Source: Nitrospirota bacterium | Lineage (GTDB): Bacteria; Nitrospirota; UBA9217 | Assembly: GCA_963705595.1 (NCBI GenBank) | Contig: CAVPKD010000007.1 | Span: 2,640-66,639, forward strand | Reading direction: 5' to 3' | Length of the DNA stretch: 64,000 bases | Shown: in pieces, positions 1 to 14,863 of the stretch | Numbering within the stretch: position 1 is the first letter of the stretch | Layout of the letters: each line of letters starts with the position of its first letter | Notes under the pieces: generated by a model | Told to the model about the DNA's origin: nothing | What the model saw: the letters and a program-made list of their open reading frames with translations, nothing else | Databases searched by the model: none | Translations under genes and position numbers: made by a program

Positions 1-430
1 ATACTCTCCGTCGCATTTGCTCTCGCTCTCCGCATTTGTCGTAGCGATCATCGCCGAGACGGGGAGGGTGCCGGTCGACAACCCGGACACGCATCTCGAG
101 CTCACCATGATCCACGAAGGAATGATCCTGGAATATTCGGGCCGTTATCTGGCGCTCATGGAATGGGCTCACTACATGAAGCAGATGGTCCTTTTTACGC
201 TGGCAGTCGATATCTTCTTCCCCACGGGAATTGCCAATAATGTTGCATTTGCTGGGCTTATCCTCCCGCTCGGCATCTACGCGGCCAAGATGCTCGGGAT
301 GGCCGTCCTCATGGCGGCGGTCGAGTCCACGCGCGCAAAGGTGCGCTTCTTCCAGCTTCCGTCGATCCTCGGAGGAGCCTTTGTCCTTGCGTTCCTGTCG
401 CTCGTGACGCATATCATGATGGGGAAGTGA
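1..430 (+). CDS. hyfC: HyfC/EhrB-like (complex I NuoH family) membrane subunit, Ehr operon 1, 5'-truncated by window edge
   Basis: AETGRVPVDNPDTHLELTMIHEGMILEYSG is the NuoH/HycD/HyfC signature; paralog at 7523-8468. Confidence 0.9.
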   Translation, partial: YSPSHLLSLSAFVVAIIAETGRVPVDNPDTHLELTMIHEGMILEYSGRYLALMEWAHYMKQMVLFTLAVDIFFPTGIANNVAFAGLILPLGIYAAKMLGMAVLMAAVESTRAKVRFFQLPSILGGAFVLAFLSLVTHIMMGK

Positions 431-600
431 CGATGTACGGTGAATGTCGAATTGAACATTGAAGATCGGAGACTAAGGAATACATTCACCCCTGAGGCCA
501 TGAGGTCACTGAAAAAAACATTGCGATGTTTTACCTCTGTGTGCCCTGTTTCTCTGCGGGGACAACTTTAGTGCTCATCTTTAAAAGAAGGGTTCGCGTT

Positions 601-1261
601 ATGAAAGTCTGGCTTGAAGCATTCTCGATAATCTGATTTCATTTCCGTCGGCATTCTCCTGACGGCCGTCACCCTGAACGCCTTCAAGAGCATCGAGTCC
701 TATGTGAAGGCATACACGATCAATTCCTGGCTCCTGTCTGGCTTGATCGCCGTGGTAGCGGTCCTCGTGGGCGAGACGCACCTCTATATCGCGGCTCTGC
801 TCACGCTCACCACGAAGGGGATCATCATACCGCTTTTCCTGCGGAGGATCGTGCGCCAGATGCGGGTGACGCACGAAGTGCAGCCTTACATCAGCAACTC
901 CGTGTCGCTTGCCATCTCGGGCATTCTCGTGGCCGTGGTGTATGCGTCGCTCAAGGACGGCATCTTCGTCACCGGGTTTTCAAGGAACGTGCTCCAGATA
1001 TCCATCGCCGTGATCCTTATCAGCCTCTTCATCATGATCACGAGAAAAAAGGCGTTGACTCAGGCGATAGGGCTTCTGTTCATGGAGAACGGACTGTTCC
1101 TCGCGGGGTTCTCTTTGACCTTCGGCATGCCGACGATAATCGAGCTCGGCGTTCTTTTCGACATGCTGATGGGCGTGATCATTCTGGGGATCTTTGCCAT
1201 CCAGATCAAGCGGGCCTTTGCATCGGCAGATCTGGACAAGCTTACGGTGCTTAAGGGATAG
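601..1261 (+). CDS. hyfE: HyfE/EhrC-like membrane subunit (frameshift near 620-640)
   Basis: C-terminal ITRKKALTQAIGLLFMENG and ELGVLFD motifs; hydrophobic frame FISVGILLTAVTLNAF extends upstream of ORF 704 toward ATG 601. Confidence 0.8.
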
Positions 1262-1312
1262 GACGTTCGGAGTGCAGAGCACACAGCCCAAGTTAAGGTA
1301 GAGAGGATATAC

Positions 1313-2804
1313 GTGGTCACCATACTGATCATACCGGTCGTAACTGCCTTCATATGCTATGTGATGAGGAATGCACGCTTAATCGGCTACGTGAGCCTCG
1401 TCGGCACTGCCGCTCTGGCGCTGTATGCCTATCCGACGGTTGCGGCATCCATTTCCGCGCCGGTTGCGGCCATGGGCGGAGCATTCTCGATGGACGCTCT
1501 CTCGGGTTATATCATGGCGATCGTGATTTGCCTGAGCCTCGCATCGGCGATCTACTCCATCAGCTACCTCGAGCACGAGCTTGAAGCGGGGCTCATTGAT
1601 CTCCGCGGGGTCAGGCGCTATTACGGCCTGTTGCAGCTTTTCATCTTCACCATGCTTATCGTGACCATGGCGAACAATCTGGCGATCATGTGGATCGGGA
1701 TCGAGGCCACGACGATCGTGTCGGCCCTTCTCATCGGGCTCGGGTTCCATAAGCGGCCTCTGGCGATCGAGGCGGCCTGGAAATACATCATCCTCTGCAC
1801 GGTCGGCATCACCTTCGCGCTACTCGGGACCTTCATCGCCTACTATGCTTCCACGGCGGTCATGGGGACTGAAGGGGCGCTCAACTGGACGGCGCTCAAA
1901 ACCGTGGCCCCACGGCTTAATCCCATAGACCATGAAGCTCGCATTCATTTTCGTGCTCGTGGGTTACGGTACCAAGGCCGGCCTGGCGCCGGTGCATAAT
2001 TGGCTGCCGGACGCGCACAGCCAGGCACCCAGCCCCATCAGCGCGCTGCTCTCGGGGATCCTCCTGAACACGGCATTCTACGGGATCATGCGCTTTGTAT
2101 CTATCGTCGAACCGTCGACGGGAGAAGCGTTCACCGGCAACCTGTTGATCATCTTCGGGCTCATCTCAGTCGGCATCGCGGCCATATTCATCCTGGTGCA
2201 GGAGAACTACAAGCGGCTCCTTGCGTACAGCAGCATCGAACACATGGGCATCATCTCCCTCGGCGTCGGCATCGGCGGACCAATCGGCATCTATGGGGCC
2301 CTCCTTCATATCCTGAACCACGCGCTGGCAAAGCCGCTCATGTTCTTCGCCTCGGGAAAGATCCAGGCGCGCTTCGGCTCGACGAACATTGCGAACGTGA
2401 ACGGCGTACTCTCTTCCATGCCGCTCCTCGGCACGTTGACCTTCATCGGCGCTTTGTCGCTTTCGGGCACGCCACCCTTCAACATTTTCGTGAGCGAGTT
2501 CACGGTGCTGAAGGCAGCGGTCGATAGGGGGCTCTGGCCCCTGGTGATCCTCTTCCTTCTCTTCGTCGTCATCGTGTTCTACGGGGTCCTGTCAGGTTTC
2601 GGAAAGATGCTGTTAGGAAAGCCGGAAGAAGCGTCAGGCGTTCCGGCAGAGCATCATCATGTCGCAGGCTATAATGCCGGCAATGCTCTCGGCAATGGGG
2701 TCATGATCATTATGGCGCTAGCGGTAATCGTTATGGGCTTCAAAGTTCCCGGGTTTATCGACAGCACTATCAGGACCTGCGTTCAAGTCCTCGGAGTAAA
2801 TTGA
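1313..2804 (+). CDS. hyfF: HyfF/EhrD-like antiporter-type (NuoM/MrpD family) subunit, split by a frameshift near 1925
   Basis: ORFs 1313-1999 (WIGIEATT, EAAWKYIILC) and 1932-2804 (GYGTKAGLAPVHNWLPDAHSQAPSPISALLSG, KRLLAYSSIEHMG) join into one HyfF. Confidence 0.88.
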
Positions 2805-4372
2805 TGGAGAACATCTTCAAGAAAGCGGTATCGACGCGGGAGCATCACAACGAGGTCTTTATCGAGGTCAGGAAAGAGGACTTCAAGGACGTCTGCGTGC
2901 ATCTCCATGCCAGGCAGCATGCGCTCCTGCGCCTCATGTTCGCAGCGGATGAACGGGAGAAAGACGGCCTTTTTCGGATTTATACCGTATTCACCATCCC
3001 TGGCGTGGACAGGTTTTACTTCATCGTGCTACCCATACGGGAACAGGATCCCTCCTTCCCGTCCATTACGAGCTCGATCCCCGCGGCCCACTGGTACGAG
3101 CGCGAGATCAACGATATGGTTGGACTTGTGCCGCACGGGCATCCCGACCAGCGCAGGCTTGTTTTCCATGAATCATTCCCCATGCGTTCTCATCCGCTCC
3201 GGAAAGATTGGAAGATCACGGAATCGGATGCCAAGGAGTGGGGAGAGGGAACGACGATAAAGGTTCCCCATCCTTTCATGGAGGTCGAAGGCGAAGGAGT
3301 CGTCCAGATCCCCGTTGGCCCGGTTCATGCAGGCATCATCGAGCCCGGACACTTCCGGTTCAGCGCCGTGGGGGAGACCATTTTCTTCCTCGAGCCTCGT
3401 TTGTTCTATACTCATAAGGGTACGGAGAAACATTTCGAGACCCTGGGCTTTATCGAAGGGGTGAAGCTCGCTGAGCGTGTTTCCGGTACCTCATCCTTCT
3501 CCCATGGTGCAGCATACTGCATGGCGGTTGAGCGGATGACGGGGGCCGAAATCACGGAAAAGGCATCTGCTGTGAGGACCCTCCTGCTCGAACTCGAACG
3601 TATCTACAATCATGTCGGGGACATCGGGAACATGTGCGCGGGAACGGCGCTCGCCGTGGGATACATGAAGGGCGCGGTAATCAAAGAACAGCTCATGCAG
3701 CTCAATGAACGGCTCACGGGCAGCAGGTATCTGCGCGGAGTGAACGTGGTCGGCGGCGTCACCAGGGATGTATTTGCTCAGGCCGATGATATCCTTAAGA
3801 CCCTTGATATCGCTACCAGAGGTTATAAAGAGCTTATGCAGCTTTTGCTCGGGTCGGTATCGCACATCGAACGGCTCCAGAACACGGGCAAGCTGTCCAA
3901 GGACATCGCAATGAAGCTTGGCGTCACGGGCGTGGCTGCGCGCGCGTCTGGTCTTAACGATGATATGAGAAAGTCCCATCCTCATCTTCTGTACGACCGG
4001 CTGATCTTCGAATCCCACACTCACGAAAAGGGCGACGTGTTCGCGCGCATGATGATACGTGGTGAAGAAACGGAATGCTCCATATCCATGATCCAGGCGC
4101 TCATTGAAAGCGGATATAAGGGCGAACTTGCTGTTCCGGTGCAACAGGCCGCTGCCTATGCGTCGGGACTGGGCTATGCTGAGACGCCGCGCGGTTCGGT
4201 GTTCTACTGGGTCATGGCTGATAAGGAAGGGAAGCCGTTTCGCGTAAAATTCCGCTCACCGTCCTATTGCAACTGGCCCGCGGTGCCCTTTGCGGTCCAT
4301 GGGAACATCGTGCCCGATTTCCCTCTCTGCAACAAGAGCTTTAACTTGTCGTATTCAGGGACGGATATGTAG
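2804..4372 (+). CDS. ehrL: EhrL large subunit (NuoC-NuoD/HycE-like fusion) lacking NiFe-binding cysteines
   Basis: WYERE...GHP, GPVHAGIIEPGHFRF, HKG; has ERVSGTSSFSH in place of RxCxxC and DFPLCNKSFNLSYSG in place of DPCxxC. Confidence 0.88.
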   Translation: MENIFKKAVSTREHHNEVFIEVRKEDFKDVCVHLHARQHALLRLMFAADEREKDGLFRIYTVFTIPGVDRFYFIVLPIREQDPSFPSITSSIPAAHWYEREINDMVGLVPHGHPDQRRLVFHESFPMRSHPLRKDWKITESDAKEWGEGTTIKVPHPFMEVEGEGVVQIPVGPVHAGIIEPGHFRFSAVGETIFFLEPRLFYTHKGTEKHFETLGFIEGVKLAERVSGTSSFSHGAAYCMAVERMTGAEITEKASAVRTLLLELERIYNHVGDIGNMCAGTALAVGYMKGAVIKEQLMQLNERLTGSRYLRGVNVVGGVTRDVFAQADDILKTLDIATRGYKELMQLLLGSVSHIERLQNTGKLSKDIAMKLGVTGVAARASGLNDDMRKSHPHLLYDRLIFESHTHEKGDVFARMMIRGEETECSISMIQALIESGYKGELAVPVQQAAAYASGLGYAETPRGSVFYWVMADKEGKPFRVKFRSPSYCNWPAVPFAVHGNIVPDFPLCNKSFNLSYSGTDM

Positions 4373-4450
4373 AGAATCCCTAAGGGGTAAGGTGTCAGTC
4401 GTATGGAGTATGCAGGAGCCGAAGGATTCGGCCTGTGCGGATGAACGATC

Positions 4451-4523
4451 GACAGGATAACGGGATTAACAGGATTGATGCCTTGGTTTTGAAAAATCCC
4501 GTACATCTTGTCAACCCTGTCAA
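4451..4523. repeat. Intercistronic inverted element with 9-nt periodic arms
   Basis: ACAGGATAA-CGGGATTAA-CAGGATT ... AATCCCGTA-CATCTTGTC-AACCCTGTC. Confidence 0.75.
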
Positions 4524-4559
4524 AGAGATTTGCATTTTATCATTACTTGAAGGCAAGAA

Positions 4560-5084
4560 ATGTTAAAAGAGATCATAAATAATATTGTACAAAAAAAACA
4601 GGTCATTCCTTTTCCCGAGGGATTCACCGTCACGCCTGAGCAGGCGGCGAAGATTGTTGACATTCAGAGGAAAATTGATACAATCTTCGGGAGGTCGCTT
4701 CGGATCAGGCAGATCGATGCGGGCTCGTGCAATGCCTGTGAATGGGAATGCACGGCGCTCACCAATCCCATCTACGATATCCAGCGGTTCGGCATCGACT
4801 TCGTCGCGTCACCGCGGCACGCCGACGTGCTGCTCGTGACCGGCCCGGTGTCGCGCCAGATGGAGCTTGCGCTGAAGAGGACGTACATCGCGACTCCTGA
4901 GCCGAAGCTTGTTGTAGCGTGCGGTGATTGCGCGAAAGACGGCGGTATATATAAAGGAAGCTACGCGGTCACGAACGGGGTTGAAAACGTTGTTCCCGTC
5001 GACGGCTACATCCCGGGATGTCCGCCGACGCCTATCGCGATCTTGTTGGGGCTTTCCCAGCTCATCGATAGACGCACTAAATAA
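4560..5084 (+). CDS. ehrS: EhrS small Fe-S subunit (NuoB/HycG family)
   Basis: GSCNACE, ASPRHAD, ACGDC and GCPP motifs. Confidence 0.9.
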   Translation: MLKEIINNIVQKKQVIPFPEGFTVTPEQAAKIVDIQRKIDTIFGRSLRIRQIDAGSCNACEWECTALTNPIYDIQRFGIDFVASPRHADVLLVTGPVSRQMELALKRTYIATPEPKLVVACGDCAKDGGIYKGSYAVTNGVENVVPVDGYIPGCPPTPIAILLGLSQLIDRRTK

Positions 5085-5124
5085 GCTGAAGAAGCCAAGC
5101 GTTATGATCCCGTAAAAAACGGAT

Positions 5125-5203
5125 TTACCACTGAGTCATAGTGTCACAGGGGTTTTTTTATTCACAGCACGTTTTATGCCGTGCCTTAGTTTCTCTGTAG
5201 CAG
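5125..5203. repeat. Intercistronic inverted element, ACCACAGAG-type
   Basis: TTACCACTGAGTCATAGTGTCACAGGGG ... CCGTGCCTTAGTTTCTCTGTAGCAG. Confidence 0.65.
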
Positions 5204-5294
5204 ATTTTCTTTTTTTAAATGTATCAGACGCGGTTAAGAGATGAAATGATCGGTTTCAGGTCAAAGATGCAGGGATACTCCGGGAGGTAGGGAC

Positions 5295-7339
5295 GTGCTT
5301 CTTTCACCTATCAGCATCATATCCTTGTCTTTTGCTGTGCTTCTGCTCCTGCTTGCGCTAACGCCGTTCCTGCGCAATAACCAACGGCTCCTCATTAATT
5401 CTGGTTTTTCCCTTACCACCATCGCTTCTCTTCTTGCCACTGTTGCAGGTGTCTGGACCGTGGCAAGCGGCGACACTTATCAGGCTCATTCTGCCTATCG
5501 GTCTGCCCGACCTTCCGTTTCATCTCAGGCTCGACCTCCTGTCGGGTTATTTCCTCGTAGTCATCGGACTGCTGGCCTTTTTCGTGTCCATCTATTCCAT
5601 CGGGTACGTCAAGGGGTTTCTGGGCCACCGGTCGATAACCAGCCTGGTGGTTTTTTATGCCTTCTTTCTCGCGGGGATGTTCCTCGTCGTCCTGGCCGAT
5701 GACGCCTTGTTCTTCCTGATCGCCTGGGAGATGATGGCTGCGGCTTCGTACTTCCTGGTGCTCTTCGAGGATGAGCGTATCGAGAACAGGAGGGCCGCTT
5801 TTCTGTATCTCGTCGTCGCCCACGTGGGCGCGATCGCGATCCTTCTGTCCTTCGGCGTCATGGCGGGTCTTGCCACAGGTTTCAAGGGATTTGAAGGCTA
5901 TACCTTCGATGCCATGCGCGAGACCGATCTCCCCGCGGGATGGGCAACGGTGGCTTTTCTTCTCGCCTTCTTCGGGTTTGCGGCCAAGGCCGGCGTGATC
6001 CCTCTCCATGTCTGGCTGCCCGAGGCGCACCCGGTCGCACCGTCGAATGTCTCCGCGCTCATGAGCGGGGTGATGCTCAAGACCGCCATCTACGGGATCG
6101 TGCGGGTCGTCTTCGACCTCATCGGCGATTTTCCCTGGTGGTGGGGCGCCCTCGTCCTGGTCTTCGGCCTCGTGTCCGCGGTCATGGGCGTTCTCTACGC
6201 CCTGATGCAGCACGATCTGAAAAGGCTTCTTGCGTACCATTCCGTGGAGAACATCGGCATCATCCTCATCGGCATCGGTCTCGCCATGATCTTCACCTCC
6301 TTCGATATGTCCCTCCTGGCCGCCCTGGCGCTGATCGCCGGTCTCTATCACACGTTGAACCACGCCATGTTCAAGGGGCTCCTCTTCATGGGAGCCGGCG
6401 CCGTGCTCCACGCCACGCATGAGCGGAACATGGAGGAGATGGGCGGCCTCATCCGCTTCATGCCCTGGACCGCCGTGCTTCTTCCTGGTCGGCTGCATCT
6501 CGATCTCGGCGCTTCCGCCCTTTAACGGATTCGTGTCGGAGTGGCTCACGTACCAGGCGTTCCTGCTTTCGCCTGCGCTTCCCAGTCCGCTCCTGAACCT
6601 GCTCATCCCGCTGGGGGCCGCGCTCCTGGCGCTCACGAGCGCGCTTGCCGCCGCCTGTTTCGTGAAGGCCTTCGGCGTGACGTTTCTGGGACACCAGCGC
6701 GGTCACCATCATGGCCACGTCCATGAGGTGCGCTGGTCCATGCGGATCGGCATGATGCTTGCCGCCCTCACCTGTCTCGGCCTCGGCGTTCTGCCGACGT
6801 TCATGATCAAATGGATGGACCCCCTCGCCGAGGAACTGGTCGGCGGCACGATCGCCTCATCGGCATCGGGCTTCGGCTGGATGTGGCTCACGCCGATTGC
6901 GGCCGAACGGGCCTCTTATTCAGCGCCCATCGCATTTCTGGGCATCCTGTCCGTCGTGATCATAACCTATCTGCTGCTCCATACGCGGCCCGGGGCCATC
7001 CACCGGGTGCCGCTCTGGGACTGCGGATTTGAAAAGATAACCAACCGGATGCAGTATACGGCCACGTCCTTTTCCATGCCCTTACGCAGGATATTCGGCT
7101 TTCTCTTCAGCATCAAGGAGCATGTACGGCAGCTTCCGCCCGCAACGCATCCGGCCTTTCCCGAGCGCCTGCATTACCATCTCCGGGTGCGGGACCGTTT
7201 CTGGGGCTGGTTCTACCAGCCCGTGGTCGATGCAAGCTTCTGGCTTTCCCGCAGGATCGGAAGGATGCAGCATGGCCGTATCCAGATGTATCTTATCTAT
7301 TCGTTCGTGACGATCCTTGTGCTTCTGATATTTTCATGA
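5295..7339 (+). CDS. hyfB: HyfB/EhrA-like antiporter-type subunit, Ehr operon 2 (frameshifts near 5480 and 6480)
   Basis: GTG with GGAGG RBS; AWEMM, KAGVIPLHVWLPEAHPVAPSNVSALMSG, KRLLAYHSVENIG, PPFNGFVSEW, WDCG...RMQYTATSF across three ORFs. Confidence 0.88.
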
Positions 7340-7364
7340 TGAATAGTAATACGCAAAGAAAAAA

Positions 7365-7480
7365 TTGCTACAGAGTCACTGAGACACGAAGGAGATCTTA
7401 AACCTTTGATGATAAAACATAATACTATAATCTCGAAATAATGATTCCGCTTCTCTCCGTGTCTAGTAGCGTCTATGAGG
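7365..7480. repeat. Intercistronic inverted element, ACCACAGAG-type
   Basis: GCTACAGAGTCACTGAGACACGAAG ... CTCCGTGTCTAGTAGCGTCTATGAGG. Confidence 0.65.
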
Positions 7481-7522
7481 TTCCATTGTTGATTTCAGCT
7501 TCATCCGTTGAGGAGTCTTTAG

Positions 7523-8468
7523 TTGAACATTTATCCGTTTCTCATAGAGATCGTGCAGATCGCCGTCCTTCTCGCCCTGGCCCCTGCTGTTCGCGGGGTG
7601 GGTGAAGATGGTGAAGTGCTGGTTCCAGGGCCGTACGTCTCCGAGCCTGTTCCAGCCCTACCGGGACATCATGAAGCTCTTCTCAAAGGACGTGACGCTG
7701 GCCGAGAACGCATCGTGGATCTTCCGGTTCACGCCCTATCTCGTATTCGGCGTATCGGTCATGGCCGGCGGGATCATTCCCATCATTTCCACGGACCTGC
7801 CGCTGTCGGCTACGGCCGATGTCATCGCCCTCGTCGCGCTCTTTGCCATCGCGCGGTTCTTTACCGCTCTGGCCGGCATGGACATCGGCACCGCCTTCGG
7901 CGGCATGGGGTCGAGCCGGGAAATGACCATCGCCTCCCTGGCCGAGCCCGCCATGCTCATGGCCGTCTTTGCCGTTTCCCTGGTGAGCAAGTCCACGTCC
8001 CTGTCCCAGATGGCCGCCGTCATTTCCCAGGGGCACACCATGCTGAGGCCGTCGCTTGTCTTTGCGCTCTTGGCGTTCATTCTCATCGCTCTTGCCGAGA
8101 CGGGGAGGGTGCCGGTGGACAACCCGGCAACTCATCTGGAACTCACCATGATCCACGAGGCCATGATCCTCGAATATTCCGGCAGGCACCTCGCCCTGAT
8201 CGAGTGGGCGAGCATGATGAAACTCTTTCTCTTCACGGTCCTGGGAATCGCGTCCTTTTTCCCGTGGGGGATCGCTCCGAATGATGACCTGGCAGCCGTC
8301 TTCGCTGCCTTTCCGGTCCTGCTGATCAAGCTCGGGATCGTCGGCATCGGTCTGGTGCTGATCGAGACCGGTCTGGCGAAGATGAGGATATTCCGCATAA
8401 CCGAATTTCTCGGGAGTGCTTTTCTCTTTGCCACGCTCGGGATGCTGTCGTATTTTATGCTGGAATGA
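7523..8468 (+). CDS. hyfC: HyfC/EhrB-like subunit, operon 2 (frameshift near 7600)
   Basis: FQPYRDIMKLFSK, FGGMGSSRE, AETGRVPVDNPATHLELTMIHEAMILEYSG. Confidence 0.88.
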
Positions 8469-8478
8469 AATCGGATTC

Positions 8479-8548
8479 GGCCACAGAATCTCAGGGACAC
8501 GGATGATTCAGAAGTTCTTCATCCGCGAACTCTATCGTCTCTGCGATT
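8479..8548. repeat. Intercistronic inverted element, ACCACAGAG-type
   Basis: GCCACAGAATCTCAGGGACACGGATGA ... TCATCCGCGAACTCTATCGTCTCTGCG. Confidence 0.65.
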
Positions 8549-8582
8549 CGCACTTAGGTCAGGAATGAAAAGAGGAAATCGT

Positions 8583-9249
8583 ATGAACACCCAGCTTGCA
8601 TCGCAGATCAACAGTCTTCTCGCAGCACTGATCCTTCTGACGGCATTCGGCCTGGTCGTGCAGCGCAGGATGAACGCGCTGCTCCACCTGTTCGCGTGGC
8701 AGGGGTTCCTGCTTGCCGTGAGCACCGCCATCGTCGGGTTATGTGGGCGGAGTGCATGATCTGTACATCTCTTCAATCCTGACGCTCTCCATGAAGGTCG
8801 TTCTCCTGCCGTACATTTTGCATAAACTTATCGTGAAATTGAAGATCCATAAGGAAGTGGAGACGGTCGTGAATATCCCGACCACCATGCTGATGGGGAT
8901 CGTTCTGGTGATCTTTTCCTATCATCTTACCGCGCCGATCAGGGAGCTTTCGACCCTCGTGACCCGTTCGACCCTCGCGGTGGCCCTCGCCACGGTCATG
9001 CTCGGCTTCCTGATGATGATCACCCGAAAACACGCGGTCACCCAGATCATCGGGTTCCTCGCCATGGAGAACGGGCTCCTGTTCGCCGCCACGAGCGCGA
9101 CCTACGGCATGCCGCTCGTGGTCGAGCTGGGCGTGGCCCTGGACCTTTTGATCGCGGCCTTCATCTTCGGGATGTTCTTTTTCCATATCAGCACCACCTT
9201 CGACAGCCTTGATGTGGACCAGATGGCGAGGCTGAAGGAAGAGGATTGA
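8583..9249 (+). CDS. hyfE: HyfE/EhrC-like subunit, operon 2 (frameshift near 8745)
   Basis: MNTQLAS...FAWQG joined to ITRKHAVTQIIGFLAMENG...ELGVALD. Confidence 0.85.
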
Positions 9250-9422
9250 TGCGGGCATGCATGCAAAGTACCAAACCTACGAGAACATAAAATGCCAAAC
9301 ATCATCTCGCAATGGTGCAGTGGACGCAGAAAGAAGATTCAAGATAGATATTTCAGTGCAGATTTCAACGTTGCGAACGTTATGCCTCTGTGAGGATATG
9401 AATTTAACGAATTGAGGTTTTA

Positions 9423-10872
9423 ATGTCCCTTCTCATTCTCTTAGGTCGTTCCTCTTGTCGCGTCCCTGGCGCTGGCCTTCATCGGCGACCGGAAGCTTGC
9501 GCCCGAGGTGAACATCCTCGGCTCTGCTGCCACCTTTGCGGCAAGCATCGTGCTGGCGCTCCAGGTCTACGAGCAGGGGCCGATCCTGGCATGGAACAAT
9601 TTCTTCTTCGTCGACGCCTTCAGTGTCTACCTGACGGTGCTCACTGCGTTCGTCTCCATGACCACCGCCATCTTCAGCAGGCGGTACATGCGCCGCGAGC
9701 GCGAGCACGGCACCATCGGCCACCGGAGGATTCGCTTCTACCACGCCATGTTCCAGCTCTTCATCTTCGCCATGCTGCTCTGCCTCCTGACGAACAACGT
9801 GGGCATTCTCTGGATCGCCATGGAGCTGGCCACGCTGTCCACGGTCCTCCTCGTGTCCCTCTACCGCACGCCCGCCGCGATCGAGGCGGCATGGAAATAT
9901 TTCATTCTCTGCGGCGTGGGCATCGCCCTGGCGCTGTTCGGGACCGTGCTTCTGTACTTTGCCGCGGAAAAGGTGCTCGGCGCGGGCGGCGCGGCGCTTC
10001 ACTGGACGAACCTCGCCCAGGTGAGCGACCAGCTCGAGCCGACCATCCTGTCCCTGGCCTTCGTGTTCCTCATGGTGGGATACGGCACCAAGGTGGGGCT
10101 CGTGCCGATCCACAACTGGCTTCCCGACGCTCACAGCGAAGGTCCGACACCCATCTCGGCCGTGCTTTCGGGACTCCTGCTCAATATCGCCCTGTACGCG
10201 CTGGTCCGCTGCAAGGTGCTGGTGGACGGCTCCACGGGCACGCACCATTCAGGAGACATCATGATGGGCTTCGGCATCATCTCGATCATTGTCGCTTCCT
10301 TCTCCCTCTTGCGGCAGAAGGACATCAAGCGGCTGTTTGCTTATTCATCCATCGAGCACATGGGCATCGCCACGTTTGCCTTCGGCCTGGGCGGGCCGGT
10401 AGCCACCTTCGGCGCATTGCTTCACATGCTGGTCCACAGTCTGACCAAGTCGTCCATCTTCTTCACGGTGGGCCACGCCTCGCAGATGCACCGGACGCAG
10501 GAGATGGACAGGATCAAAGGGCTCATCAGGGGAAATCCGTTAGTCGGGTGGGGACTGGCGCTCGGGGTCATGGCGATCGTGGGAATGCCGCCCTTCGGGG
10601 TGTTCACGAGCGAGTTCCTGATACTCACCGCCACGATCAAGGACGCGCCACTCTTCGCGCCATTCCTCCTTCTGGGGCTCGGAGTGTCCTTTGCAGCCCT
10701 CTTCAGGAAGGTGCAGCCCATGGTCGCCGGTGAGGTGCCGCCGTATCAGAAACACTTGAAGGCAGCACATGTTCCGGTGATATTGCATATGGTCGTGGTA
10801 CTGGTTCTCGGCCTGTATATGCCGAAATTTCTCGCCGGCTGGTTCCAGACGGCAGTGGGTATCTTGAAATGA
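9423..10872 (+). CDS. hyfF: HyfF/EhrD-like subunit, operon 2 (frameshift near 9445)
   Basis: WIAMELATL, EAAWKYFILC, GYGTKVGLVPIHNWLPDAHSEGPTP, KRLFAYSSIEHMG. Confidence 0.88.
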
Positions 10873-10900
10873 GGCTGTTTCGTTGATTGAAAAAACATTT

Positions 10901-11054
10901 TTCCACAGAGGCATGGAGAGAAGCTCAAACCTTTGACATGGGAAAGACATGATTCCTTATGATTAACACGGAGAGAATCATAGTTCGTCAGGGTAAATCA
11001 GTGTCAAGGAATTTGATCGTTATTTTTTCTCCGTGTCCTCAGTGACCCTGTGGT
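10901..11054. repeat. Intercistronic inverted element, ACCACAGAG-type
   Basis: CCACAGAGGCATGGAG...ACACGGAGA ... TCTCCGTGTCCTCAGTGACCCTGTGG. Confidence 0.7.
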
Positions 11055-11084
11055 GCTGTGTTCTCTTTTTACGAGTGAGCTAGA

Positions 11085-12659
11085 ATGAGCAAACTAAAAG
11101 AAACCATACTATCAACATTCGGCGCAGACGCGAAGCAGGATGAAGGCCAGCATCCTTCTTCCGTTGTTTCCCTCCTCGTGCCGAGGGAGAGGTTTGCAGA
11201 AGCGGCGAGGGTGCTCAAGAAGGAATACGCCTTGCTCGCGGCCGAGTGGGCGACGGATGAGACCCCGTTCGGAAGGGGATTCGGAATCTATCGCCTGCTA
11301 TCGGCATGAGTCGGAATACCTCATCGTTAAGACATTCGCGCCTCTGGATGATCCGACATTCCCGAGTCTGACGAAAAAGTTTGTTCCTGCCTACCGGTTC
11401 GAGCGCCAGATGAAAAGCCTTATGGGTGTGACTGCCGTTGGCCATCCTGACCAGCGTCCCTGGATAAAACACGAAGACTGGCCCGAGGACGCCTGGCCGC
11501 TCAGGAAGATCATTTAATGCGTCGAAATCGCTGCCACGAGTCCCGGGCGAATACCGCTGGATACGGGCCGAAGGGGAAGGTGTCTATGAGATCCCCGTCG
11601 GGCCCGTGCACGCTGGTATCATCGAGCCCGGCCATTTCCGCTTTCAGGCCATGGGAGAGGACATCATCAACCTGGAAGAGAAACTAGGGTACGTGCATAA
11701 AGGGATCGAAAAGAGGTTCGAGTCCTTCTCATGGAACGAGGCGGCACGTCTGGCAGGCAGGGTGTCGGGCGATACCACGGTCGCGCATTGCCTGGCCTAC
11801 TCGCGGGCAGTGGAGGCTATGACCGGATGCATGCCTCCGGAGCGTGCGCTGTGGCTTCGGGCCTTGTTCCTCGAGCGGGAGCGTATCGCCAACCATCTCG
11901 GAGACCTGGGCGCCATCTGTAATGACGTGGCCTTCGCGTTCCTCCTGTATCAGTTCATGCGGCTCAAGGAGGCGCTCCTGCGCACGAACCTCAAGCTCTT
12001 CGGCCACCGGTTTATGATGGACAAGGTCGTTCCGGGCGGGGTGGCCGTAGATATCGATGCAGAAGGGGTAAAGACGATCCTTGCGGAAATGGACTGGCTG
12101 GCGAAGGAGTTCGAGCGGCTGGTGATCATCTACGATGAAAATTCATCTGTTGAGGACCGGGTGAGGGACACCGGCATGCTCAGATCAGAACAGGCGCGGG
12201 ACCTCGTGCGTGGTGGGTTTCGTGGCGCGGGCAAGCGGGCTGAACCTTGACTGCCGCATTCATCATCCGTTCCCTCCCTATGACCGCATCAGCGTGAGCG
12301 TACCGGTGCTTGTCTCCGGTGATGTCCATGCCCGGGCATGGGTCAGGGTGGAAGAGATCAGGGATTCCATGCGGATCATCCGGGAGATACTGAAAACCCT
12401 CCCGGATGGTGGAATGACATCCTCCGTGAACGCGCCGCTGCCGGACAGATCCGGATTTGCCGCTGTCGAAGGCTGGCGCGGAGAGATCATCTACTGGGTC
12501 CAGTCCGGTCCGAAGGGGGAGATCAACCGCTGCATGGTCAGGGACCCGTCGAGCGTGAACTGGCTGGGGCTTGAGCAGTGCATCCACGGGAACATCGTTC
12601 CCGACTTCCCGGTGTGCAACAAGAGCTTTAACCAATCGTATTCCGGGAATGATCTGTGA
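11085..12659 (+). CDS. ehrL: EhrL large subunit, operon 2 (frameshifts near 11290, 11515, 12210)
   Basis: RFERQMKSLMG..GHPD, HAGIIEPGHFRF, GRVSGDTTVAH (no Cys pair), DFPVCNKSFNQSYSGNDL. Confidence 0.85.
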
Positions 12660-12703
12660 GAGAACGAGAATATTAATCTGGACACGGCGTAATGATGTGC
12701 TTG

Positions 12704-12780
12704 AACCGCGACAGCGCCAAGAACGCAAAGTCTTAATATCTCAGAAATAGTTCATGTTATGTTCGCCGTTTTCAGCGGTT
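12704..12780. repeat. Intercistronic inverted element, AACCGC...GCGGTT type
   Basis: AACCGCGACAGCGCCAAGAACGCAAAG ... TTCGCCGTTTTCAGCGGTT. Confidence 0.65.
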
Positions 12781-12829
12781 CTGCTTCATAATTGTTTTCG
12801 TTTTGACATGGATTGGATCTAGGAGCATT

Positions 12830-13339
12830 ATGATCCGAATCCTCAAACAGATATTCCGAACCGGCATCGTCACAGAACCGCTCCCTCCCATTACCGACCC
12901 GGAGATCGAGAAGATCGGCGTACAGTTGGAGGAGATCATCAGGCGGCGTTTCAAGAGGAGCTTCGCTATCCGGCAGGTGGATGCGGGCTCGTGCAACGGC
13001 TGCGAGCTCGAGATCCACGCGATCAATAATCCCATCTACAACTGCGAGCGCTTCGGCATTCATTTCACTGCCTCTCCGCGCTTTGCGGACATGCTGCTGG
13101 TCACGGGTCCGGTCTCGCACAATATGGAGATCGCTCTCAGGAGGACCTACAACGCCACGCCGCCGCCGAAGCTGGTGGTCGCCGTGGGAGACTGCGGATG
13201 CACGGGCGGCATATTCGGCGAGAGCTATGCGTCCCTGGGCAGCATCGACAAGGTCATCCCCGTGGACGCGCGCATCCCCGGGTGCCCTCCAACGCCTACG
13301 GCCCTGCTCCAGGGCATCCTCAAAGCTATTGGGGGGTAG
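12830..13339 (+). CDS. ehrS: EhrS small Fe-S subunit, operon 2
   Basis: AGGAG RBS before ATG 12830; GSCNGCELE, ASPRFAD, VGDC and GCPP motifs. Confidence 0.9.
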   Translation: MIRILKQIFRTGIVTEPLPPITDPEIEKIGVQLEEIIRRRFKRSFAIRQVDAGSCNGCELEIHAINNPIYNCERFGIHFTASPRFADMLLVTGPVSHNMEIALRRTYNATPPPKLVVAVGDCGCTGGIFGESYASLGSIDKVIPVDARIPGCPPTPTALLQGILKAIGG

Positions 13340-13354
13340 CTCTTCATTAATTAT

Positions 13355-14843
13355 CATCTGTGCCGTAAAACCCCGTTCTTCAGGGCGGGGATATAAGGCG
13401 CTGGTTGCGAAGGAACCAGAGTCGTGCTGACCCAAATTATGAGTAGACAATCGTTCACCTTTCTGCTATAATTAAATAATGAACGGATTTGCTAAAGAAC
13501 CCGATTTGCAAACGATGACTGCTGTTGGCAAAGCATTAGTAACTGACGACAGCACCGCCCTCCTGCTTGGGTTGCTGGGGTATTCTGCGACAAAGCTCTG
13601 GAACACCGCCGTGTGGCATGCCAAAGAAGTCTGGAAAACGACCGGTAAGATCCCTTCCTATGCAAAGATGGATGTCACCATAAAACAAGAGCATCCTCAT
13701 TGGTACCGCCGTCTGCACTCACAAAGCGCCCAGGCTGTCCTTGAAGAGCTTTGGCAGTCATATAGATCATGGTTTGCTCTCCGGAAGAAGGGCGACAGCA
13801 AAGCCAAACCGCCCGGTTTCAGGCGGAAAACCAGCCTGTCGGTAGTGACCTTCAAGCAAAACGCCGTAAAGTGGAACCCGAGAACGTCTACAGCGCGTTT
13901 CAGCATCCCGAAAGACATCTACGGCAAGCAATTCCTCTATCTGAAGGTTAGGATGCCGGAGGGGACCTGTCTTGCTGAAGACAATATCCAGTTGGCCCGG
14001 CTGATCTACCACAACGGTACGTGGTCAACCCACTTTGTATACAATATAACCCTCCCCGAACTGAAAGAATCCGGGGAGACCATGGCCATAGACCTTGGAA
14101 TGAAGCATCTTGCCGCTACCGCATGCACGGATGGGGATACGACCCTCTGGTCAGGCGGCGAGTTGGCTGCCCTTGAGAGGCACTTTGACAAACAAAAGGC
14201 AAAGACCACCAGGAGCACGTCCAAAAAATCGTGTACCTTGAACCAGAAACGCTCTCGTCAGCGTTCCCACCTGCTCCACAGTTTCACTAGATCTCTTGTC
14301 AGCGATGCAGACGCTCGCGGTGTCTCCACGATCATCGTGGGGGACCTTAAGGACATTAGAAATGGCAAAGACTGGGGAGACAGCGGGAACCAGCAACTCC
14401 ACAAATGGCCGTTCGATAGGATCATCAAGATGCTCACGTACAAGGCCAGGCTTAAAGGCATCCGCGTTGTTAAGGAACCCGAGGACTATACGAGCCAGAC
14501 ATGCTGCATATGTGGCACAATATGCAAATCCAATCGTGTCCATCGTGGCCTCTATGTCTGCAACCAATGCGGTGCCGTGATCAATGCCGATGTGAATGGC
14601 GCAATCAACATTCTCAAAAGGTATCTCCCGGTGCAAATAGGTGCCTCCTGGAGTAGTGGCTGCTTGGCACAGCCTGCGGTCAACCGGTTTGCCTGGAGAA
14701 AAACCAGGCCGCTAATATCAGCCCATAAACCGGGGACGTGGCAAACAACCCTGCTACATCCGCAAACAGAATCAGCAGTGGCTCTTAGCAGCAATAGGGC
14801 CTGATTCGGGAATCCTCGGCCTTCAGGCCGGGGAGGATGTCAA
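13355..14843 (+). mobile_element. Non-autonomous IS200/IS605-family (IS1341-like) element carrying tnpB only
   Basis: Left hairpin CCCCGTTC-TTCA-GGGCGGGG (13371-13390) preceded by AAAA; right hairpin CCTCGGCC-TTCA-GGCCGGGG (14814-14833) preceded by GAAT and followed by the TCAA end (14840-14843); no tnpA inside. The left cut site (after TTAT 13351-13354) is inferred. Confidence 0.85.
13479..14804 (+). CDS. tnpB: TnpB RNA-guided endonuclease (IS200/IS605 OrfB)
   Basis: RuvC-I AIDLG, RuvC-II IIVGDL, zinc finger TSQTCCICG...CNQCG, RuvC-III NADVNGAIN. Confidence 0.95.
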   Translation: MNGFAKEPDLQTMTAVGKALVTDDSTALLLGLLGYSATKLWNTAVWHAKEVWKTTGKIPSYAKMDVTIKQEHPHWYRRLHSQSAQAVLEELWQSYRSWFALRKKGDSKAKPPGFRRKTSLSVVTFKQNAVKWNPRTSTARFSIPKDIYGKQFLYLKVRMPEGTCLAEDNIQLARLIYHNGTWSTHFVYNITLPELKESGETMAIDLGMKHLAATACTDGDTTLWSGGELAALERHFDKQKAKTTRSTSKKSCTLNQKRSRQRSHLLHSFTRSLVSDADARGVSTIIVGDLKDIRNGKDWGDSGNQQLHKWPFDRIIKMLTYKARLKGIRVVKEPEDYTSQTCCICGTICKSNRVHRGLYVCNQCGAVINADVNGAINILKRYLPVQIGASWSSGCLAQPAVNRFAWRKTRPLISAHKPGTWQTTLLHPQTESAVALSSNRA

Positions 14844-14863
14844 AAAGGACGGTAATAGTGATG
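14660..14863 (+). ncRNA. Putative TnpB omegaRNA (reRNA): scaffold overlapping the tnpB 3' end plus flank-derived guide
   Basis: Inferred from established TnpB architecture; the right-end hairpin and TCAA are seen, the 5' boundary is a guess. Confidence 0.5.

Follow-up and report, generated by a model that had tools for sequence, protein, structure and literature searches.

Gene-less palindromes of ~70–150 nt that sit between co-transcribed genes, and could fold in the mRNA, are familiar as miniature inverted-repeat transposable elements (MITEs) and as intercistronic palindromes of the ERIC, BIME and Correia types. The intervening sequences (IVSs) of 23S rRNA also have complementary borders, pair into a stem that RNase III cuts, and can encode the four-helix-bundle protein that recurs below (PMC4990558; PMC11270868). 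Here we analyse a 64,000-nt stretch (the window; C7:2640–66639 of G000, a Nitrospirota assembly of 3.6 Mb in 10 contigs) that contains two complex-I-like (Ehr-type) operons on the + strand at positions 1–13339, with extra DNA in the spacers between their genes. These spacers are probably old, gene-less, decaying copies of a family of hairpin insertions with arms built from repeated short words, linked to cassettes that carry a GxxExxY or a four-helix-bundle gene. On this reading they are the fossils of a seemingly undescribed, IVS-like cassette family.

The arms of the family are inverted arrays of two to four tandem 7–9-nt words, the word differing by sub-family. In related genera, the same architecture brackets a gene of ~125 aa encoding either GxxExxY (PDDEXK_3, PD-(D/E)XK nuclease fold) or the intervening-sequence protein of 23S rRNA. 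Elements entered as DNA between a stop codon and the next ribosome-binding site, so that the operons stayed intact. Active elements are probably co-transcribed within the host operon, as suggested by the orientation of two cassette genes in the relative G017, and by analogy probably form long RNA stems like the RNase III-cut stems of 23S rRNA IVSs, with the encoded protein probably driving the spread or upkeep of the hairpins. The window's genus has lost all intact partner genes, and its hairpins now evolve neutrally, lose arm complementarity and are being deleted. Any effect on Ehr mRNA in the window would be incidental, and the Ehr complexes themselves seem to be unaffected by the elements.

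The parallel with the IVSs of Leptospira and Coxiella, with their S23p/23S_rRNA_IVP open reading frame (ORF; PMC4990558), extends over several features. Both are insertions with complementary borders that form a long stem; some copies carry a four-helix-bundle ORF of ~120 aa (PF05635) and others no ORF; they are sporadic among close relatives, and are tolerated at sites where RNA continuity does not matter. An ORF of this kind sits between word arms at one Ehr junction of G017. Unlike the IVSs, which lie in 23S rRNA helices, all window copies lie between protein-coding genes of Ehr operons, their family's arms are arrays of tandem 7–9-nt words, and a second, unrelated ORF family (GxxExxY/PDDEXK_3) shares the architecture. 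IVS stems are excised by RNase III; those of the present family are putative substrates.

All eight Ehr junctions that carry extra DNA in the window are expanded (171, 187, 210, 183, 96, 173, 212 and 143 nt; 1375 nt in sum). The same eight junctions in G008 (NuoCD 74% identical) measure 28, 21, 85, ~0, 67, 45 and 40 nt, with an overlap at the eighth. Orthologous junctions are 0 nt or overlapping in G027 and 10, 44 and 80 nt long in G018; three compared in G026 measure 1 nt (NuoH1/X1), 1 nt (X1/NuoL1) and 3 nt (NuoCD1/NuoB1). A model's earlier annotation of the unaided DNA (hereafter the sequence-only reading) had remarked that Ehr genes normally abut and are here spaced out, which these lengths confirm (0–85 nt in other genera versus 96–212 nt). 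The window fillings are missing from the orthologous junctions in other genera; the elements are therefore inserted DNA, with an empty orthologous site for comparison.

Within the genus, two fillings of G000, at NuoCD1/NuoB1 and at NuoB1/NuoL2, recur in G003 and G001 (NuoCD 96–98% identical). That at NuoH1/X1 is shared with G003, the G001 contig not including this junction. The assemblies of G001 and G003 contain little of operon 2, so five junctions fall outside this comparison. G002 (same genus, 59% identity at fourfold sites) and the other genera have none of these three fillings. Numbering the elements S1–S8 along the operons (Table 1), S1 is not present in G002, G018, G014 or G008; S2, found in G003 and G001, is not present in the same four genomes; and the insertion holding S3 is not present in G002, G018 or G008. 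Spacers orthologous to that of S5 are shorter and unrelated in sequence. The S6 spacer is 173 nt long versus 45–83 nt in G008, G017 and G002, and the gap corresponding to S8 is about 33 nt in G002, the genes overlapping in G008.

G017 (82%) carries complete cassettes at two of the window's junctions. At NuoCD1/NuoB1 there is a 145-aa GxxExxY gene (L035:5433–5870; TIGR04256, 153.6 bits; PF13366/PDDEXK_3, 149.8 bits), flanked by CCACAGAG-ACGCAGAG-ACACGGAG on the left and CTCTGTG-TCTCTGAG-ACTCTGTGG on the right. The second cassette, at the junction of NuoH1 with the gene that follows, carries a 126-aa four-helix-bundle gene (L035:1079–1459; TIGR02436, 81 bits; PF05635/23S_rRNA_IVP, 58 bits) whose ATTGGAA-type arms are arrays of ATTGAAA/TTGGAAA words. 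Both are co-oriented with the Ehr genes. At X1/NuoL1, G017 has a gene-less ATTGGAA hairpin, and its spacer at NuoM2/NuoCD2 aligns with S7 at the same junction, the G017 copy being without the right arm. The window retains a matching trace: a left-arm remnant of ATTGAA words (446–481), overlooked by the sequence-only reading and common to G003, matches the left arm (GTCGAATTGAAAATTGAAGATTGGAAATTGGAAATTG) of the four-helix-bundle cassette at the same G017 junction. It stands just upstream of the CACAGAG-type hairpin S1, so this junction was seemingly struck by both element types.

In G021, NuoH2/NuoJK holds a three-plus-three CACGGAT hairpin and NuoJK/NuoM2 a CGCAGAG element; unrelated GTCATTCCCG-type palindromes are present at two further Ehr junctions. 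Comparison of these sequences indicates that Ehr junctions have been colonised repeatedly, by different sub-families, in different lineages. The sequence-only reading had proposed comparing empty with filled orthologous junctions, and the comparison returns empty sites in other genera and gene-filled ones at the two G017 junctions. Together with the shared architecture, this supports its view of the spacers as miniature insertions of the GxxExxY/four-helix-bundle type. A different family of small palindromes, GTCATTCC[CG]G...C[CG]GGAATGAC, also sits at Ehr junctions of G021 (L036, C23), at 5842–5950, at 3026–3163 and inside 1910–2082; the loop of a CACGGAT word hairpin encloses one of its copies.

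The word content of the spacers supports the same assignment. Heptamers of the form C-R-Y-N-G-R-G number 15 in the 1375 nt of spacer, against 4.2 expected from other intergenic DNA (3.6-fold, Poisson P 3e-5). Of the 15, 14 have the orientation that the architecture demands, forward in a left arm or reverse-complemented in a right arm. The arms have a period of 8–9 nt and the window elements fall into at least three word sub-families; both the ~9-nt periodicity and the mixture of sub-families had been seen in the sequence-only reading. Inverted arrays of tandem 7–9-nt words are clear in S2, S7, S5 and S4, and degenerate in S1 (reverse words CTCTGTG and CTCTGCG in the right arm), S3 (left arm with CACTGAG and CACAGGG, both forward) and S8; S6 has none.

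Table 1 Extra DNA and genes of the two Ehr-type operons (window positions, + strand). MFE, minimum free energy (kcal/mol); z, fold score of the G000 copy against dinucleotide shuffles.
Feature	Positions	Type	Details	MFE; z
Remnant	446–481	ATTGAA-word left arm (GTCGAATTGAACATTGAAGATCGGAGACTAAGGAAT)	Starts 15 nt past the NuoH-like stop codon	
S1	487–561	CACAGAG/CACGGAG; degenerate CACAGAG-type hairpin	Left arm 487–512, right arm 534–561	z −0.9
S2	4451–4521	ACAGGAT/ACGGGATTA hairpin	Three 9-nt words per arm	−25.1; z −2.8
S3	5127–5203	CACAGAG/CACGGAG; degenerate CACAGAG-type hairpin	Within a ~135-nt insertion (about 5088–5225) between both operons	z −0.4
S4	7340–7477 (hairpin 7367–7470)	CACAGAG/CACGGAG	138-nt indel immediately 3' of the NuoL-like stop codon; word arms 7367–7394 and 7450–7470	z −1.2
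S5	8480–8549	CACAGAG/CACGGAG; CACAGAG/CACGGAT-type hairpin	Left arm 8480–8505, right arm 8520–8549	−23.6; z −2.0
S6	9322–9396	Extra DNA, no demonstrable hairpin	Lone word CTCTGTG at 9386	z +1.5
S7	10903–11053	CACAGAG/CACGGAG; best-preserved element	Outer arms CCACAGAGGCATGGAGAGAA / TTCTCCGTGTCCTCAGTGACCCTGTGG, inner arms CCTTTGACA / TGTCAAGG; 3+3 words	−47; z −4.1
S8	12703–12781	GAACCGCGA-CAGCGCCAA-GAACGCAAAG	Weak hairpin, outer stem GAACCGC/GCGGTTC	z −1.1
NuoH-like, operon 1	end 430			
X1, operon 1	602–1261		219 aa, no Pfam match	
NuoL-like, operon 1	1313–2804			
NuoCD-like, operon 1	2801–4372		Fused	
NuoB-like, operon 1	4560–5084			
NuoL-like, operon 2	5295–7339			
NuoH-like, operon 2	7523–8468			
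NuoJ/K-like, operon 2	8565–9249			
NuoM-like, operon 2	9423–10872			
NuoCD-like, operon 2	11085–12659			
NuoB-like, operon 2	12803–13339			

The genes that such arms bracket were surveyed in 40 relatives. GxxExxY genes occur in 1–10 copies in most genera of the family and are almost missing from other families of the phylum; four-helix-bundle genes occur in 2–12 copies in most other genera of the family. The window's genus (G000–G003) has no intact copy of either. Each of the 12 GxxExxY genes sampled from relatives is bracketed by inverted C[AG]C[AG]GAG (or ACGCAGAT) arrays, and all 13 four-helix-bundle genes sampled lie between inverted arrays of very different words (CAGTAGA, GGGTCAG, CGGAGTT, GTCTGTCTG and others). 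One of the latter, in the arms of a G008 cassette, is ACGGGATTA, the word of S2. In G000 the only traces of both cassette genes are a truncated GxxExxY N-terminus of 36 residues (KELTVKIIGACFIVSNELGHGFLERMY...; C2:265349–265456), between CGGATG-word arms, and a four-helix-bundle N-terminus of 26 residues (C6:228261–228338).

Two further observations concern these genes. A GxxExxY cassette with CACAGAG arms lies between the same flanking gene pair in two genera (around 1340–2010 of L056, G008:C142, and L059, G012:C9), either as an old common insertion or as a repeat hit at one junction. In G038, a Nitrospirota genome that has no GxxExxY genes, the octamer CACAGAGG is repeated head to tail in long runs on many contigs; these look like a tandem form of the same word, a reversed control pattern also being frequent.

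Relatives of the window elements are dispersed over the G000 genome. Searches with blastn and word scans found CACAGAG-type copies at C6:793778, C9:98480, C4:477171, C6:168166 and C2:431193, CACGGAT-type copies at C10:290066 and C9:59035, and ACAGGAT-type relatives of S2 at C4:26849–26917 and C8:90004. C8:2856–2895, in reverse complement, matches the left arm of S8 with 85% identity across 40 nt (E 7e-6). Element ends are typically (A)CCAC...GTGG(T). S7, S4 (7340–7473) and C4:477171 have in common a core beginning AAACCTTTGA; with a core of their own, these three gene-less copies look like a gene-less lineage and not like cassettes emptied in place. The sequence-only reading had suggested emptied cassettes, a step that is unproven given this shared core and the spacers' want of ORF remnants.

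Strict word-pair and hairpin scans give about 5–6 clean copies genome-wide, one of them in the Ehr region. A loose census counts 109 convergent versus 77 divergent arrangements over a high background, and suggests about 30 real family copies in G000. S7 passes both the strict and the loose census. At fixed criteria, 4452–4520 (S2) and 10904–11051 (S7) are the only recoveries in the Ehr region, so that the genome-wide mapping proposed in the sequence-only reading succeeded in finding paralogs and fell short at six of the eight junctions. Some genomic copies lie between divergent genes, which leaves the proposed targeting of inter-cistronic sites unproven; inserted DNA may just happen to persist in the stretch from a stop codon to the following ribosome-binding site.

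Within the genus, the hairpins change as fast as neutral DNA or faster. Between G000 and G003, identity at the fourfold-degenerate sites of NuoCD1 is 86.9%, while the three elements common to the two genomes are 81%, 86% and 71% identical, with flanks at 87–92%. The G003 copies fold better than those of G000 (S3, −31.2 versus −16.4 kcal/mol, the G003 ortholog scoring z −2.1; S1, −27.4 versus −20.6 kcal/mol). Loss is seen at C10:290066, where G001 is without 202 nt but keeps the last right-arm word, which identifies a deletion at that locus. G001 is also precisely without 7340–7477, reading TTTTCATGA|GGTTTCC with nothing between. All three genomes retain the element at C6:793778, where the changes are scattered and for the most part non-compensatory.

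Several observations weigh against the reading of the spacers as decayed cassette relatives. Folding and complementarity alone leave most window copies indistinguishable from ordinary intergenic DNA. When whole spacers were folded, which removes the dependence on the coordinates originally chosen, their mean z (−0.52) equalled that of 240 random intergenic segments of G000 (Mann–Whitney P 0.40), and gapped inverted-repeat alignment gave a small shift above the intergenic background (P 0.016) with no spacer beyond the 90th percentile. S6 is nearly without family signal. No ORF or ORF remnant was found in any window spacer with tblastn and 25 cassette proteins, and descent from gene-carrying cassettes at these sites is therefore not demonstrated. 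Strict word-pair counts correlate with GxxExxY copy number (Spearman 0.80 over 41 genomes, 0.76 within the family), which favours the reading, but the correlation is uncorrected for phylogeny and is due in part to the arms of the genes themselves; G018 and G029 are rich in word pairs yet have no GxxExxY gene. The direction of change at 7340–7477 is ambiguous: G000 may have gained the DNA with duplication of 4 nt, or G001 may have lost it through microhomology of the direct ATGA repeats (7336–7339 and 7474–7477, the left copy including the NuoL2 stop codon). Lastly, G000 has many 1-nt indels, perhaps assembly errors, and part of the arm damage could be artefactual.

Convincing hairpins are limited to three or four spacers: S7, S2, S5 and, more weakly, S4. 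Over the intervals first delimited, 10896–11045 folds at z −4.1 (none of 200 shuffles folding as well), 4445–4530 at −2.8 and 8474–8553 at −2.0, the other five lying between −1.2 and +1.5. A default inverted-repeat search with a 9-nt seed recovered none of the claimed hairpins, and a de novo tandem-word scan, which is without power at such decay, returned direct and reversed controls as frequently as inverted hits. We dropped the notion that every spacer is a demonstrable hairpin, there being no or slight excess over the genomic intergenic background. What survives of the sequence-only reading's hairpin at almost every junction is three or four hairpins and the enrichment and orientation of words; the whole set is no more structured than intergenic DNA, five of the eight spacers come close to having arms no more complementary than such DNA, and the weak element proposed at 9322–9396 shows no hairpin.

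Some of these results are what chance would offer: ordinary divergent intergenic DNA, with arms produced by pattern-seeking in degenerate sequence. Most spacers do lie within the intergenic background for folding and inverted-repeat scores, two of eight pass the fixed word census and 9322–9396 has no hairpin. Chance is nevertheless highly improbable as a general account. Against it stand the word enrichment with its correct left/right orientation, the fold of S7, the paralogs elsewhere in the genome, the better hairpins of the G003 orthologs, and the gene-carrying and gene-less word hairpins at the same junctions in G017 and G021. It is contradicted for six or seven of the eight spacers and possible only for 9322–9396.

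A role in RNA metabolism would make the hairpins RNase III or RNase E sites, or barriers to 3' exonucleases, that set the amounts of Ehr subunits. Their position fits: on the transcribed strand they fall between cistrons, and the ribosome-binding regions downstream are intact. RNase III cuts the stems of 23S rRNA IVSs that hold the same kind of ORF (PMC4990558), and two genera have a related element at the same junction, NuoM/NuoCD. Several stem differences among G000, G003 and G001 are transitions that keep G-U pairs on the + strand, while several others break pairs; compensatory or G-U-preserving changes are too few to test. The same operon is, however, without hairpins in G008, G027, G026 and G018, and hairpin presence varies within the genus. 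Element sequence drifts at or above the fourfold-site rate (identity 0.71–0.86 versus 0.87), and whole-spacer folding matches the genomic background. Rfam covariance models gave no match over window positions 1–13400 at E up to 1, a promoter scan of the spacers found nothing, and a terminator scan placed one weak site in them (5167–5184; 5 sites overall versus 12.4 expected from shuffles), consistent with the earlier view that these are not terminators. RNA processing or stability as a selected function, tuning stoichiometry as the sequence-only reading had offered, is contradicted by the presence/absence variation, neutral drift and lack of excess structure in most copies. We regard it as unlikely, with the well-formed copies as its remaining room.

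The elements might instead be ordinary MITEs, or repetitive extragenic palindromic (REP) sequences or REPINs, moved by a transposase encoded elsewhere, such as an IS200/IS605 or RAYT-type Y1 enzyme. They share with MITEs and with the ERIC, BIME and Correia-type palindromes a gene-less form of ~70–150 nt between co-transcribed genes, and with the REP/REPIN–RAYT system short, multi-copy intergenic palindromes, a small gene between inverted repeat copies, repeat abundance that tracks gene presence, and hairpins that decay where the gene is lost. G000 has nine Y1_Tnp genes and a TnpB element beside the operon, and the direct ATGA repeat brackets the 138-nt indel of S4. Yet the arms are tandem word arrays with no unique terminal inverted repeat, and the genes they bracket encode PD-(D/E)XK or four-helix-bundle proteins, not a Y1 transposase. 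Copy number is low (about 30, not hundreds) and many word sub-families coexist. The indel at C10:290066 cuts inside the right arm, as a deletion and not an end-to-end excision. No parent insertion sequence with matching ends and no consistent target-site duplication were found, the single 4-nt ATGA repeat apart. The nine Y1_Tnp genes have 0–2 CRYNGRG words (both strands) per 250-nt flank, which is background, and none is word-bracketed, so that membership of REPIN/RAYT fails, in line with the earlier statement that these are not REP sequences. Transposase-borne MITEs or REPs are accordingly a quite improbable explanation.

What the word-array cassettes add is a natural series at one set of orthologous sites: abutting genes, a gene-less hairpin, a hairpin with a nuclease gene, a hairpin with a four-helix-bundle gene, and decayed and deleted forms. 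This series marks the elements as insertions and links hairpins that have no gene with cassettes that carry one; it also hints at a dependence of the hairpins on the genes, and gives the nuclease a concrete candidate substrate, its own arms. GxxExxY/PDDEXK_3 and the 23S rRNA IVS protein are two very common 'hypothetical' families of no known function. Full-text searches found no paper linking either to word-array hairpins outside rRNA, and in the literature found PDDEXK_3 appears under 'unknown' while 23S_rRNA_IVP is called uncharacterised in function. New here are the allelic series at orthologous operon junctions, loss then decay within one genus, and the many word types with which the architecture occurs around the four-helix-bundle gene.

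A question that follows is whether the rRNA IVS is a special case of a general operon-invading element. Tentatively, the hairpins and the GxxExxY nuclease or four-helix-bundle (S23p/Avd-like) protein might form one widespread, undescribed class of selfish cassette, which colonises intercistronic spacers and would also be the source of the classical 23S rRNA IVSs. The words would then be the protein's binding sites, the protein would propagate or maintain the hairpins, and gene loss would lead to decay and deletion.

The Ehr region has other features of its own. At least eight of its G000 genes are broken by single-base indels, the orthologs being whole in G001, G002 and G003. The affected places lie within 602–12659 (for example near 636, 1926, 5700, 6420, 7600, 8750, 9500, 11520 and 12230), and the two inspected fall outside homopolymers (GATAATCTGAT versus GATAACTGAT; CCCATAGACC versus CCCGT-GACC). 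An estimated completeness of only 78% for 10 contigs suggests residual assembly errors; real pseudogenes are the alternative.

Downstream of operon 2 lies the TnpB element (IS200/IS605-type). Its left end (13348–13400) matches dozens of places in G001 and G003 at 85–98% identity, so the genus has many copies of it. The sole Rfam hits (14619–14850), weak matches to sot0042 (42 bits) and HgcC (23 bits), both below gathering score, overlap the TnpB gene at its 3' end, the position expected for a guide (omega) RNA. Upstream of the NuoL2 start, a stretch of ~55 nt (about 5236–5294; TGATCGGTTTCAGGTCAAAGATGCAGGGATACTCCGGGAGGTAGGGACGTG) is near-invariant in G000, G001 and G003 and recognisable in G002 and G018, the adjoining hairpin being only 71% identical; operon 2 may thus have a conserved leader or a regulatory site here.

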